Source: Candidatus Poseidoniia archaeon (GTDB lineage: Archaea; Thermoplasmatota; Poseidoniia; MGIII; CG-Epi1). Taken from it: a stretch of 64,000 nt of DNA. This document shows positions 13,951-32,076 of this stretch, one piece after another; position 1 is the stretch's first letter, and the number at the start of each line of letters is the position of its first letter. Below the pieces are notes generated by a model that did not search any database, had not been told where the DNA came from, and saw only the letters and a list, made by a program, of their open reading frames with translations. The DNA is taken from the NCBI GenBank assembly GCA_030754655.1, contig JASLZX010000001.1, forward strand, positions 14,400-78,399, in the 5' to 3' direction. Position numbers and translations under genes: made by a program.

Positions 13951-14904
13951 GTGGGCCTCTTCAACCCCGCCAGATTTGCGAAGGAGGCAGTCGCCGCCAT
14001 CGAGAAGCAGGTCCAGGGACGGGCGATTATCGCCGCCTCGGGTGGTGTCGATTCTATGGCGGCGGCGGTGCTCGCGTCGCAGGCGCTGGGCGAGCAGCTG
14101 CTGGCGGTGCACGTTGATACTGGCTACATGCGACAGGACGAATCGACGGTGGTCGGTCGCATGCTCGTTGATATGAAAGTCAACCACCACGTGGTTGACG
14201 CCAGCGACCGTTTCTACGCGGCGCTGGAGGGAGTGACCGACCCCGAGCTGAAGCGCACGCGCATCGGCGAGCTTTTTATACGCGTCTTCGAGGAAGAGGC
14301 GCGCGGTTTCGACGCGAAATGGCTGGTGCAGGGGACCATCGCGCCCGACTGGATTGAGTCGGGCGGCGGGCTGCGCGACACCATCAAGTCGCACCACAAC
14401 GTCGGCGGCCTGCCGGAGGACATGGAAATGGAACTCTGCGAGCCGCTGCGCGAGCTCTACAAGGACGAGGTGCGCGCGCTGGCGGAACACCTCGGCGTTG
14501 CGGTCGCGCAGCGTCAGCCGTTCCCCGGCCCCGGGCTGGCGGTGCGGGTGATGGGCGAGGCGACCCGAGAGCGCACCGCGCTGGTGCGGCAGGCGTGCTA
14601 CATCGTCGAGCAGGAACTCGAGACTGCCGCGGAGGCGGGCGAGATGGAACTGCCGTGGCAGTATTTCGCCGTCCTGCTCCCGGTGCGCACCGTGGGGGTG
14701 CAGGGCGACGTCCGCGCCTACGGCCACACGATTGCCGTGCGGGCGGTCCAGAGCTACGATGCGATGACTGCGCAGGCGTCAGCGATGCCGTGGGGAGTGC
14801 AGCAGCGCATCTCGCGCCGCATCACCAACGAACTCAAGGAAGACATCAACCGGGTGGTTTACGACGTCACAGACAAGCCGCCTGGAACTATAGAGTGGGA
14901 ATGA
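13951..14904 (+). CDS. guaAB: GMP synthase subunit B (ATP-pyrophosphatase subunit)
   Basis: SGGVDS, QGTIAPDWIES, IKSHHNVGGLP, PFPGPGLAVR, KPPGTIEWE; no glutaminase domain (archaeal split form). Confidence 0.96.
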   Translation: MGLFNPARFAKEAVAAIEKQVQGRAIIAASGGVDSMAAAVLASQALGEQLLAVHVDTGYMRQDESTVVGRMLVDMKVNHHVVDASDRFYAALEGVTDPELKRTRIGELFIRVFEEEARGFDAKWLVQGTIAPDWIESGGGLRDTIKSHHNVGGLPEDMEMELCEPLRELYKDEVRALAEHLGVAVAQRQPFPGPGLAVRVMGEATRERTALVRQACYIVEQELETAAEAGEMELPWQYFAVLLPVRTVGVQGDVRAYGHTIAVRAVQSYDAMTAQASAMPWGVQQRISRRITNELKEDINRVVYDVTDKPPGTIEWE

Positions 14905-30043: not shown

Positions 30044-30445
30044 TCACACGCCGAGGTTGAGCAGTAGCACCCGCCGCGCGCCGCGGTGCTCGGAGACCGC
30101 CAGGAAACATTCGCGTTCGGCGTCCACGAGATGCCGTGCCCACGCCTCGGCTTCGTCGGGCGAGGATTCGCCGGGCTTCTCGTCGGTCCCCTTCGCGAGT
30201 CCCGCCAGCCGCTCCAGCAACAGCAGCGGCATCCGCGCGTGGCCGCCGACTGCGCCGACGTGCTCGGGCCATTCGCGAGCGACTAGTGCCGCGAAGCGCT
30301 TCAGCGGCGCGGCCGCCTCGTCGAGACCGGCGGTCCCGCACTCACCGTGCACCTGCAGGTCAACCCCCTTCGACGCGCGCGCAGCCGCTTTGGGGGCGAA
30401 CCCCCAGTAGGCGAGCGCGGCCTTGCGGGCGGTCGCAGCACTCAT
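30044..30445 (-). CDS. Hypothetical protein
   Basis: ATG 30445 with TATTAAG ~23 nt upstream; co-oriented with pduO. Confidence 0.55.
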   Translation of the reverse strand: MSAATARKAALAYWGFAPKAAARASKGVDLQVHGECGTAGLDEAAAPLKRFAALVAREWPEHVGAVGGHARMPLLLLERLAGLAKGTDEKPGESSPDEAEAWARHLVDAERECFLAVSEHRGARRVLLLNLGV

Positions 30446-30479
30446 GCCGCGGCTATGCCGGCGCGGCTTAATACGGTTC

Positions 30480-30758
30480 GGCGGGACCCCGGATGGCGTC
30501 GGCCCGATCCTGGCACGCATGGAAATCGACTACCGCCTACCGGTCAAATTTCCCGACACAGTCCGCTGCGCAGCGGCCGTCACCAGCTTGGGAAACTCGT
30601 CATACCGCATGGCGTACCGCCTCCACTCGGAAGCGCACGGCGGCATCGCGGCGGAGGGCGACTCGGTGGTGGTGATGGTAAACTACGGGACCGGTCGCAG
30701 CGTCCCGCTCAGCGACGAACTGCGCAGCGCTATCCAGAACCTCGAAGACGGAGTCTGA
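30480..30758 (+). pseudogene. N-terminally truncated 4HBT-like acyl-CoA thioesterase
   Basis: GPILARMEIDYRLPVKFPD...LGNSS...GDSVVVMVNYGTGRSVPL matches the C-terminal half of hotdog thioesterases; the catalytic DxxGHVNN N-terminus is absent and there is no room for it. Confidence 0.6.
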
Positions 30759-30776
30759 TTCCGTTACAGTTTTATG

Positions 30777-31150
30777 GGGCCGGCTCAACACCGGCCTTGT
30801 CCAGAAGGGTTGGGTCCCGAACGACCATTCCCCCCTGCGGGGTCGTGGCTGCCGGGGCCCGGGTTCGGGCGCCGGGTTTCCCCTTGCGGGGCTCCCCGGT
30901 CCCTGTTGCCTTCCGGTCCCTCCGTCCCCCGCCTTGGGTCTTGGCCTTGCGGCCTCCACCTTCGGCTTCTTCCGGAGTTTCCGGTTGGCGTCCGTCCGGT
31001 TCCCCCAGCTTCCGCTTCGGTCCTCCGCCTTGCGGCTTCGGTCCTGGGCTTCCGCCGGTTTTTCCGGTCGGTCCCTCGCCTTGCGGGTTATCTCAGCCCT
31101 TCGGATGAGAATATCCCAGCGCGGGAACTCATCATAGGCGAGGGGCCTAT
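30777..31150 (-). ncRNA. Candidate large structured non-coding RNA of unknown family
   Basis: Intergenic; only 3 A on the + strand over 30828-31089; four CC-GCAA-GG hairpin cores, further GGAA loops, long-range helices, terminal GGCCGG/CCGGCC hairpin. Confidence 0.65.
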
Positions 31151-31233
31151 TTACTGCCATTCGCAAACACGTAAATATGATGAGCGCAGCGACGCCTCCG
31201 CGGTCCTTTTCTGGCGCCGCCGGCTGACTTCCC

Positions 31234-32076
31234 GTGCACCCCTACCTGGAAATCACGCGCCCCGCCAATTGCGTGCTGACCGCGGTCGGCGTGGCGGTCG
31301 GCGCGTTCGTCGCGGTCGGCCCGGAGCTGGCCGAAATGGCGCCGCAGCTGGCGCTCGGTTGCGGCGCGGCAATGGCATGCGTCGCCGGGGGCAACGTGCT
31401 CAACGACTGGTTCGACCGCGAAACCGATCGCGCCAACCATCCGCAGCGGCCGCTCCCCTCCGGGCGGCTGCAACCGACGGCGGCGCTGCGCTGGGCGCTG
31501 GCGCTGCTGGCGGCCGGACTCGCGGCGCTGGCGGCCGGCTGGTTGACCGGCCTGCTCAGCGCGCTGCCGCTGGCAATTGCCGGCGGCGGCTGCCTGCTGC
31601 TTGGCAGCTACGAAACCGGACTCAAGGCAACCGGGCTGCCCGGCAACGTGCTGATTGGACTGCTCTCGGGCGCCGTGTTTCTCTACGGCGGCTCGCTCAC
31701 CGACGATCCTGGGCCCGCGCTGTGGCTCTTCACGCTGGCGGTGCTCGCCTCGGTCGCGCGCGAGATCGTCAAGGACGTCCAGGACCTAGTGGGCGACCAC
31801 GACCGGCGCACGCTACCGGCCACCATCGGGACGCCGCGCGCGCTGGCACTGGCCGCCATCGCACTGCTGGTAGCCGTCGCGCTGAGTTTCTACGCGGGCG
31901 CGGGCTTTGACGGCGACGCGCGCAGTGGCTATTTGGCACTGGTCGCGGCCGCCGACGCGGTGATGCTCTACGGCCTCTGGCAGGCACAGCAGGGCGACGC
32001 GCGCACCGGACAGAAACTGCTGAAACAGGGAATGTGGGTCGCGATGGCGGCGTTCATCGTCGGGGCGGGGCTATAG
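31234..32076 (+). CDS. Digeranylgeranylglyceryl phosphate synthase (UbiA family)
   Basis: EITRPANC, NDWFDRETDRANHPQRPLPSG, REIVKDVQDLVGD, RTLP motifs; multiple TMs. Confidence 0.88.
   Translation: MHPYLEITRPANCVLTAVGVAVGAFVAVGPELAEMAPQLALGCGAAMACVAGGNVLNDWFDRETDRANHPQRPLPSGRLQPTAALRWALALLAAGLAALAAGWLTGLLSALPLAIAGGGCLLLGSYETGLKATGLPGNVLIGLLSGAVFLYGGSLTDDPGPALWLFTLAVLASVAREIVKDVQDLVGDHDRRTLPATIGTPRALALAAIALLVAVALSFYAGAGFDGDARSGYLALVAAADAVMLYGLWQAQQGDARTGQKLLKQGMWVAMAAFIVGAGL

Follow-up and report, generated by a model that had tools for sequence, protein, structure and literature searches.

A nearly uridine-free, structured RNA gene in a genus of marine group III archaea

What kind of gene occupies a few hundred base pairs of archaeal DNA in which one strand is almost devoid of uridine? 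That question is raised by a locus in a 64,000-nucleotide stretch of DNA (the window, whose first letter is position 1; positions 14,400 to 78,399 of contig JASLZX010000001.1, assembly GCA_030754655.1) from a Candidatus Poseidoniia archaeon of marine group III (MGIII). There, an initial annotation had proposed that the segment 30777-31150, between a truncated thioesterase gene and a DGGGP synthase gene, specifies an undescribed structured non-coding RNA (ncRNA) on the minus strand. The RNA does not code for protein, is conserved, adopts a fold and turns up in RNA libraries, and we consider it likely that the element as a whole is an independently transcribed, abundant, structured ncRNA of one high-G+C MGIII genus, with the start and architecture set out below. 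The core of the proposal is borne out by the pattern of indels, by compensatory base pairs, by an asymmetry of G·U pairs between the two strands and by GNRA caps, and its description as an expressed, undescribed RNA by contigs from RNA libraries of four studies and the lack of an Rfam match. None of the outcomes that had been named as evidence against it (a significant Rfam match, a lack of both covarying homologues and minus-strand reads, or protein-type conservation of the overlapping open frame) was found.

The compositional anomaly itself is readily verified. A base count of the plus strand at 30828-31089 (262 nucleotides) gave, as had been claimed, only 3 adenines (30958, 30976 and 31007), accompanied by 105 C, 82 G and 72 T; frames of that length across the window contain on average 48.1 adenines (standard deviation 9.5), and nowhere else does the count drop to 12 or below. 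The sequence CCTTGCGG on the plus strand, corresponding to CCGCAAGG on the minus strand, begins at 30882, 30945, 31028 and 31079, which locates all four of the CC-GCAA-GG cores reported earlier; since the entire 64-kb window holds 6 copies on the plus strand and 9 as the reverse complement, four copies within approximately 200 nucleotides far exceed background. Also present in the letters, as described, are CCCC-GCAG-GGGG, two copies of GCGGAAGC, one of CCGGAAGG, CCGG-AAAAA-CCGG, a 3' hairpin of the form GGCCGG-N7-CCGGCC and an exact 11-nucleotide direct repeat (31014-31024 and 31035-31045). Six GNRA hairpins with at least three Watson-Crick pairs were observed, against a mean of 0.36 and a maximum of 4 in 5000 mononucleotide shuffles, and CGGAAG and CCGGAA occur four times each in the element, against approximately 0.3 expected; Shine-Dalgarno-like GGAGG repeats are not enriched in the element (3 against 1.66 expected), and their positions are not conserved.

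Frames of 150 nucleotides with at most four A or T occur at only two places in the 1,207,938-base genome, of which the element is one. The other lies outside the window (C11:86173-86356, with 6 T in 184 nucleotides) and encodes the C-terminal tail of ribosomal protein uS3, which is acidic and rich in Glu, Ala and Pro, with the L29 gene after it; low-complexity coding tails are thus able to mimic a U-poor composition signal. Because that tail is U-poor and yet coding, the hypothesis that the element likewise encodes protein deserved a serious test, for which homologous sequences were needed.

The source genome is a 94%-complete metagenome-assembled genome, and the element lies on its contig C11 as a single copy, no paralogue having been found in that genome. 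BLASTN located the element in six of the eight other genomes of the same MGIII genus and in none of 32 genomes outside it. Further copies were sought in metagenome and genome collections with an 18-letter pattern taken from an invariant 5' segment of the element; most matches to that pattern were due to chance, and the set retained after BLAST filtering comprises 25 loci and 17 unique sequences. These divide into a clade A, with 92-100% identity to the window copy, and a clade B, with 74-78%, and identical sequences were recovered from independent assemblies (L027 equals L002; L080, L032, L024 and L004 are all alike). Two loci of the same genus, L080 (CAUZDT010000007.1) and L079 (JAKURS010000118.1), carry the labels Thalassarchaeaceae (marine group II, MGII) and MGIII, respectively, from different submitters. 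A viral origin was considered and rejected: the five pattern matches in IMG/VR cover only the 19-22-nucleotide seed.

A covariance model (R1), built from the 3' 143 nucleotides only, so that distant homologues keeping other parts could escape it, recovered the same six of eight genomes of the genus, none of 34 genomes of two sister genera and none of 142 other Poseidoniia genomes, including 106 from MGII (0 of 41 and 0 of 65). The two congeners that lack the element are 64% and 74% complete, and the thioesterase gene that adjoins it elsewhere was not found in them either; given incomplete genomes that also lack the neighbouring gene, the locus is probably unassembled there. In the sister genera no positional orthologue was found, and in most of them another open reading frame (ORF) lies approximately 20-70 nucleotides past the thioesterase. 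The G+C content around the DGGGP-synthase-like gene is 34-39% in the sister genera versus 61-70% in this genus, a gap large enough that a diverged homologue could go undetected.

With these homologues the coding hypothesis could be examined directly. A minus-strand ORF of 188 amino acids (30600-31166) is open across the element, but a strand without U cannot hold a stop codon, and the open frame is therefore uninformative. Among the 17 unique homologues, the indels within the RNA measure 1, 1, 14, 1, 1 and 1 nucleotides; L027 has one +1 indel and L080 two -1 indels, at a divergence of only 6-8%. Sorted by codon position, the variable columns number 22/13/16 for clade A and 6/13/14 for clade B, without a third-position excess, and fixed differences between the clades as 11/15/18. 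Clade B keeps neither the reading frame nor the ATG of the ORF, and the only Pfam match to the ORF product was noise (E = 0.071). Neither a kept frame nor a third-position excess, as would be expected of a protein-coding sequence, was thus found, and, because indels break the frame and codon periodicity is lacking, the region is a minus-strand non-coding RNA gene and no protein gene. Gene callers will annotate an ORF at the element, since a U-free strand has no stops, and the present finding corrects such annotation.

Evidence that the RNA is folded was drawn from a consensus computed with RNAalifold on a 16-sequence alignment, in which all homologues represent two or three close lineages. The consensus comprises 82 pairs in 17 helices. 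Standard pairs fill 99.2% of 1311 pair cells; sliding the 3' partners by 1-3 columns lowers this share to 21.8-56.7%, and double-sided changes affect six pairs (37 cells), versus 0-2 pairs (0-7 cells) with slid partners. None of 500 shuffles reached the observed covariation score or percentage paired, a control that related sequences may pass even when they are unstructured. The compensatory pairs are spread across the molecule, with two in the helix that closes it, three shared out singly among arms 1, 2 and 4, and the sixth in a short helix of arm 1. Variation touches 34 of 144 paired columns versus 95 of 181 unpaired ones, and the apical caps vary only as GCAA, GUAA, GCGA and GCAG across the 16 sequences. 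In this genome's copy, pairing involves 71 G, 65 C, 10 U and only 3 A, which leaves 79 of the 82 adenines unpaired.

The same pairs also reveal the strand. Folded as a single sequence, the minus strand has a minimum free energy z of -2.81, and the two strands, taken alone, are nearly equal (-183.6 versus -180.7 kcal/mol; z of -2.30 versus -2.81). When the consensus pairs are scored on each strand across the alignment, 1301 of 1311 cells can pair on the minus strand, 95 of them as G·U, versus 1213 of 1311 on the plus strand; this pairing, which relies on G·U, points to the minus strand as the RNA strand. The general marks of a structured ncRNA were all found: the element is better conserved than its neighbours, bases change in compensating pairs, G·U pairing is specific to one strand, and RNA libraries contain the sequence. 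In our judgement it is very probable that the minus strand carries a genuine ncRNA gene.

The near-absence of uridine is a property of the family and not of individual positions: per homologue core of 248-263 nucleotides the U count is 3-10 for clade A and 9-14 for clade B, and no core U position is common to the two clades. The signal recognition particle (SRP) RNA of the same genome contains 13.2% U, and the U fraction of SRP and RNase P RNAs is 12-13%, versus 1-5% in the element.

The 5' end of the transcript can be placed by a conserved promoter-like arrangement. The initial annotation had pointed to a TATTTA promoter and a start near 31150; that hexamer exists (31179-31174), but the relevant TATA-like box, and the likely promoter, is TAAATAG at 31153-31147, which is invariant in 15 of 16 homologues (AAAAAG in L052), and the promoter spacing, the point where invariance sets in and the RNA contigs together place the 5' end at about 31128-31117. 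The box is followed by a variable 16-nucleotide spacer (31131-31146; CCCCTCGCCTATGATG in clade A versus CCCTGCTCTTATGAT in clade B), after which invariance resumes at alignment columns 22-24 (31130-31128). The invariant 5' segment, AAGUUCCCGCGCUSGGAUAU (31111-31130), is identical in all 16 sequences but for the one S, and covers both the predicted start and the fragment ends described below. The gene for SRP RNA (C56:31025-31095 region) displays CCAAATAG, in which AAATAG lies 19 nucleotides upstream of the first base of the RNA; from this SRP-like spacing and the onset of invariance, we infer that transcription would start approximately 20 nucleotides downstream of TAAATAG, near 31128. The AAATAG shared by the two genes may represent a stable-RNA TATA consensus of the genus.

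Expression was assessed from assembled contigs. Seventeen RNA-labelled runs (10 studies) hold 0.22-0.74 of the sampled words of a 901-nucleotide query, and four runs from four studies (X1, X4, X8 and X11) supplied the contigs; the word shares of the other runs were left out of the evidence. Contigs of all four runs lie on the element within 30809-31125, and X4, X8 and X11 have none outside approximately that interval. In X1 a 499-nucleotide contig without a single difference over 31121-31400 (depth 6.46) indicates that the organism was present in that run, while a 333-nucleotide contig over 30584-30886 has a depth of 325.5, contigs within the element reach depths of, for example, 642 and 6584, and the depths of 98 contigs sum to approximately 143,000. 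The depth of the element in X1 is 10^2-10^4 times that of its neighbouring genes, and although contig depth is a poor measure of expression, this is a strong hint of very high RNA abundance. Contigs from X1, X4 and X8, representing three studies, read into Illumina adaptor sequence at 31113-31119, and, allowing for letters common to adaptor and genome, their inserts end at approximately 31110-31117. The adaptor at 31115 in X8 is of the Read-1 type, which a minus-strand RNA in a dUTP library would be expected to give, but X1 has the same type in both orientations; it was not used to assign the strand.

At the other end, covariation of the closing helix requires that the transcript reach 30801, and high-depth contigs end between 30857 and 30809, with none of high depth in X1 over 30766-30856. 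Stretches uncovered by contigs were not taken as evidence, and ends were not set from gaps. The 3' end can be bracketed between about 30857 and about 30766, and the RNA would be about 330-360 nucleotides long. Of the initial proposal of a transcript of approximately 370 nucleotides running to about 31150, the ncRNA thus stands, and its boundaries are revised at both ends (5' at 31128-31117, 3' at 30857-30766).

The minimal gene, defined by conservation, covariation and the strand test, spans 30801-31128 on the minus strand, on which all parts named here lie unless stated otherwise; its 5' end is at 31128-31117 and its 3' end extends at least to 30801, and possibly to about 30766. A closing helix, P1, is formed by UCCGAAGGG (31097-31105) and CCCUUCUGG (30801-30809), the latter holding the first U-run of the transcript and reading CCCUUUUGG or CCCUUUUAG in other homologues; its two compensatory pairs change from CG to UA in 7 sequences and from AU to GC in 7 sequences. 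P1 is followed by a variable 5' hairpin region (31076-31096), in which CC-GCAA-GG (loop 31084-31081) occurs in clade A only and GUUA-N8-UAAC takes its place in clade B, and a 3-base-pair helix (31073-31075 with 30861-30863) lies inside P1.

Four arms are enclosed. Arm 1 (30993-31070) is a long imperfect hairpin of G-C helices, AAAAA/GGGAA and GGAA/GGAA loops and a GCAA cap (31033-31030; GCAA in 10 sequences, GUAA in 6), in which pair 117:126 changes from GC to AU in 7 sequences. Arm 2 (30908-30989) is a paralogue of arm 1, the two giving a self-match of approximately 74% over 80 nucleotides at an offset of about 82; its pair 166:243 changes from CG to UA in 8 sequences, and its tip is 14 nucleotides shorter in clade B, where the GGC-GCAA-GCC end is retained, so that the GCAA cap (30950-30947) is present in both clades. 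Arm 3 (30867-30903) reads CCGGG-GAG-CCCC-GCAA-GGGG-AAA-CCCGG, with its cap at 30887-30884 (GCAA in 14 sequences, GUAA and GCGA in 1 each). Arm 4 (30812-30860) bears a GCAG cap in the window copy (30838-30835; GCAA in 12 sequences, GUAA in 2, GCGA and GCAG in 1 each), and its pair 299:337 changes from CG to UA in 6 sequences. Throughout, helices of 2-7 base pairs, nearly all G-C, are parted by symmetric, purine-only internal loops (AAAAA/GGGAA, GGAA/GGAA, GAA/GGA), and both GGAA strands of the 4x4 internal loop are invariant in 15-16 of the 16 sequences.

Beyond P1, the segment 30766-30797 holds an invariant or nearly invariant hairpin, CCGG-UGUUGAG-CCGG, followed by CCCCAUAAAACUGU; read on the plus strand it presents ACAGTTTTATGGGG immediately after the thioesterase stop codon, and its probable role is that of an oligo-T terminator for the convergent thioesterase mRNA, of a 3' tail for the RNA, or of both. 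An AACU within it (30771-30768) could pair with AGUU at 31129-31126, a site that shows no covariation. A leader helix between CCCCUCGCC and GGCGAGGG (31145-31137 with about 31073-31066) looks attractive in the source genome but was rejected: it lies in the variable spacer, is poorly kept in clade B and was not chosen by RNAalifold.

The genomic neighbourhood agrees with the flanking genes that had been named. On the 3' side, a convergent thioesterase gene (4HBT_2; 30423-30758, plus strand) is linked to the RNA in both clades. In this genome it matches only residues 53-139 of the 139-142-residue protein of congeners, the N-terminal 52 residues being encoded in no frame of 30100-30800, which indicates a 5' deletion in this genome; other genomes of the genus have the full-length gene. 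The thioesterase is degraded while the RNA is intact, a contrast that speaks against the RNA being an appendage of that gene. Beyond the thioesterase, both clades have an ORF of unknown function and then a cobalamin adenosyltransferase gene. The ORF, of approximately 156-158 amino acids and without a Pfam family, is conserved in both clades (30044-30520, minus strand, in the window; L090:2886-3356, plus strand), and in this genome its 5' part overlaps the thioesterase remnant.

On the 5' side, a divergent UbiA-family, DGGGP-synthase-like gene (31234-32076, plus strand) adjoins the element in clade A only, and the UbiA-family gene lies on other contigs in the congeners G003, G005 and G007. A block at 31155-31200, comprising TATTTA (31179-31174) and GCTGCGCTCATC, is common to clades A and B despite the different upstream gene; approximately 50 nucleotides upstream of the TATA-like box are conserved between the clades, and because the neighbouring gene differs, the block belongs to the RNA gene. 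Judged from its sequence, it could be an upstream promoter, a regulator site or a divergent promoter. The stretch 31155-31227 also holds, on the plus strand, a short ORF starting ATGATGAGCGCA; it numbers 16 codons here, and the clade B version, with 24, resembles it in the first residues only.

Why should an RNA of this kind avoid uridine, and what might it do? The architecture that we propose is a closing helix enclosing four long arms, in which G-C helices, symmetric purine-only loops and GNRA caps recur. A three-letter make-up would give an unambiguous G-C fold, since losing U also removes A-U and G·U as alternatives, and would leave adenines and guanines free as docking surfaces; it would also provide an RNA body without a U-tract usable by archaeal termination or cleavage; and the U-free state may have been inherited from a duplicated U-free module, represented by arms 1 and 2. 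These three rationales (an unambiguous fold, the absence of U-tracts and an inherited module) would be mutually compatible. The avoidance of oligo-U termination, which the initial annotation had offered, is insufficient alone, because the SRP RNA tolerates 13% U and near-total loss of U would not be explained by it.

With respect to function, a search for genomic targets of the U-containing 5' tail returned only three chance 11-mers elsewhere in the genome, and the element has no conserved single-stranded seed. Rigid G-C rods, invariant purine loops and GNRA caps, in the absence of a seed or target, point to an RNA that acts through its shape. Our first, and tentative, choice is accordingly phrased as a model: the RNA would be the scaffold of an abundant ribonucleoprotein, or would sequester a protein, with the conserved GGAA/GGAA loops and the GNRA caps as protein contact sites. 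A bolder conception, which we regard as rather doubtful but worth stating, is that of a natural three-letter RNA, nearly without uridine, forming either a rigid, self-assembling, RNA-only particle or the core of a new genus-specific ribonucleoprotein; such an RNA would also be invisible to U-dependent termination and cleavage (oligo-U pausing and aCPSF1/FttA) and, if that conception is true, would have no predecessor among large orphan RNA machines described from planktonic archaea.

Several observations weigh against the interpretation of the element as an independently transcribed, structured RNA with the start, architecture and role given above. (i) The homologues belong to only two or three close lineages, so that the compensatory pairs, six in number, amount to approximately six events and the shuffle control overstates their support. 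(ii) Many helices are invariant, and several arms are predicted by thermodynamics alone. (iii) The fragment ends (31110-31119) lie 9-18 nucleotides inside the predicted start, which could mean processing; either that or the 5' truncation common in cDNA libraries would account for them. (iv) The 3' strand of P1, which covaries, falls within 30766-30808, a segment that no high-depth contig covers. (v) The data are contigs, which do not directly give the strand, the precise ends or the real level of expression. (vi) The scaffold role is modelled from anatomy only.

The alternative to a scaffold that survives best, although we judge it improbable, is that the RNA works by itself, as a ribozyme or as a self-assembling multimer in which GNRA caps dock into the helices of neighbours. 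The docking of GNRA loops into minor-groove receptors of helices is established chemistry, and the element offers four to six GNRA-capped hairpins, many tandem C-G helices as possible receptors, invariant unpaired blocks of A and G, and abundance. Set against these features, no catalytic or known receptor motif was recognised in the element, a U-free core cannot hold the classic 11-nucleotide receptor or T-loops, and a distribution restricted to one genus is unusual for a ribozyme.

It is less probable still that the functional transcript is the plus strand, free of A and rich in C, U and G, for example as a long 3' untranslated region of the thioesterase mRNA. Both strands fold about equally well when taken alone, the contigs carry no strand information, and one X1 contig (30584-30886) links the 3' part of the thioesterase gene with the element. 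On the plus strand, however, 88 additional cells become A·C mismatches; the loops would read UUGC, UUAC and UCGC, none of them GNRA; a run of five T (31064-31068) falls within the high-depth region; the TATA-like box, variable spacer and invariant start suit the minus strand; and the thioesterase is a truncated remnant in this genome, whereas the element is intact.

A minus-strand RNA produced merely as the by-product of a cis-acting element (a bidirectional terminator, an insulator or an antisense regulator of convergent genes) has a slighter chance still. The constant convergence of the RNA with the thioesterase gene, and the X1 contig of depth 325 that spans the element into that gene, are what such an element would lead one to see; a conserved multi-arm structure of approximately 330 nucleotides with its own conserved promoter, however, exceeds the needs of a terminator, the depth is well above that of both neighbours, and the element has remained intact beside a degraded thioesterase.

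The chance is equally slight that the RNA is a diverged member of a described family, be it Tan1 (discussed below), SRP RNA, RNase P RNA or a C/D-box small RNA (sRNA). A search of the window with the 4227 models of Rfam 15, which include IMES, OLE, GOLLD, ROOL and 6S, returned three tRNAs at gathering score and nothing in the element, in keeping with the earlier remark that the RNase P CR-I/CR-V motifs and the SRP helix-8 motif are not visible there. At E values up to 10 the element gave a single noise match (SNORD34, E = 4.8, 16.1 bits against a cut-off of 38), and a clade B copy five (a flavivirus repeat and miRNAs; best E = 0.26, 21.3 bits against a cut-off of 41). Archaea_SRP (RF01857, gathering score 96.5 bits) did not match the element even at E up to 10, nor did RNaseP_arch (RF00373, 84-bit threshold and a CR-I to CR-V core) match it. 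The true SRP RNA, of which a genome should have one, is found elsewhere in the genome, at C56:31095-31405 (148.5 bits), as is RNase P RNA, whose gene is split by the end of contig C44 (C44:95020-95184 and C4:1078-1127), so that only weak Rfam fragments appear in the source genome. The idea that the element replaces RNase P RNA was rejected, since the congeners G003, G004 and G006 carry a full RNase P RNA (202-216 bits) together with the element and the source genome's own gene is merely cut by a contig end.

Archaeal C/D-box sRNAs are molecules of approximately 50-70 nucleotides with an RUGAUGA C box, a CUGA D box and a kink-turn (K-turn). The window copy does contain AUGAUGA...CUGA at 31074-31143 (minus strand), as does L048, and this arrangement, along with the SNORD34 match, speaks for such a relationship; the other 14 sequences lack it. 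The candidate was rejected, since the C-box-like heptamer occurs in only 2 of 16 sequences (L001 and L048) and lies upstream of the RNA fragment ends. As to Tan1, it too is an abundant orphan ncRNA of Poseidoniia, but it was reported as an RNA of 229 nucleotides from MGII, and none of 106 MGII genomes matched the 3'-domain model.

Least credible of all is a low-complexity basic protein gene (30600-31166) whose composition would follow from U-poor codons, like that of the uS3 tail, for although that frame is open and the genome's only other U-poor stretch is coding, indels break the frame even between sequences 92-94% identical, third positions show no excess, clade B has neither frame nor ATG, the sole Pfam match is noise, and the ORF would overlap the convergent thioesterase gene by approximately 160 nucleotides.

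With an abundant structured RNA of the minus strand as the preferred reading, the element acquires some wider significance. Archaea of marine groups II and III are abundant and have not been cultured, and their RNA biology is almost blank, with one orphan ncRNA (Tan1) found in the literature searched. The element is a defined molecule of approximately 330 nucleotides that is amenable to in vitro transcription, probing, imaging and use as bait. Its near-absence of U bears on the minimal alphabet required for complex RNA folds, on the role of purine-purine internal loops and on the shaping of archaeal RNA genes by U-tract termination.

How, finally, does the element compare with known systems? 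In the openly licensed (Creative Commons) PMC and bioRxiv literature, Tan1 was the only comparable object found, and no description of the element's own RNA was found. Tan1 (Thalassoarchaea ncRNA 1) is described by Hou et al. (2016, Sci Rep 6:35470) as a 229-nucleotide, abundant, structured orphan ncRNA of MGII, seen in marine metatranscriptomes, that ranks alongside RNase P and SRP RNAs and has homologues only in close relatives (PMC5069720). The likeness lies in being an abundant, structured orphan ncRNA of Poseidoniia with homologues only in close relatives; the reported difference lies in 229 nucleotides and MGII as against about 330-360 nucleotides and one MGIII genus. SRP and RNase P RNAs resemble the element in size (about 300 nucleotides), high G+C content, multi-helix fold and abundance, and in having a gene of their own with a promoter of the AAATAG type; they differ in that their covariance models do not match it, in their U content of 12-13% versus 1-5%, and in that the element is limited to one genus.

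OLE, GOLLD, ROOL and IMES-1 to -4 are large, elaborately folded RNAs of bacteria or associated with phage, several of them rich in GNRA loops, and some large orphan bacterial ncRNAs are extremely abundant in marine metatranscriptomes. The element is like them in size, fold and GNRA richness, but their hosts are bacteria or phage, none of their Rfam models matches here, and we know of no RNA of that type that is nearly free of U. CsrB/RsmZ and 6S RNAs are abundant RNAs that titrate a protein, as by repeated motifs, and the four copies each of CGGAAG and CCGGAA invite that comparison. In CsrB, however, GGA is displayed in apical ANGGA loops, whereas the element has apical GNRA loops and places GGAA in symmetric internal ones, and CsrA (PF02599) was not found in the 94%-complete source genome; the CsrB-type sponge suggested at the outset is therefore unlikely as stated. 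The element likewise differs from 6S RNA in having neither a 6S-like central bubble nor an Rfam 6S match. On these comparisons, with length, host group and the model search arguing against homology to Tan1, we rate the element as a new family of abundant, orphan, structured ncRNA, set apart by its unusual three-letter composition.

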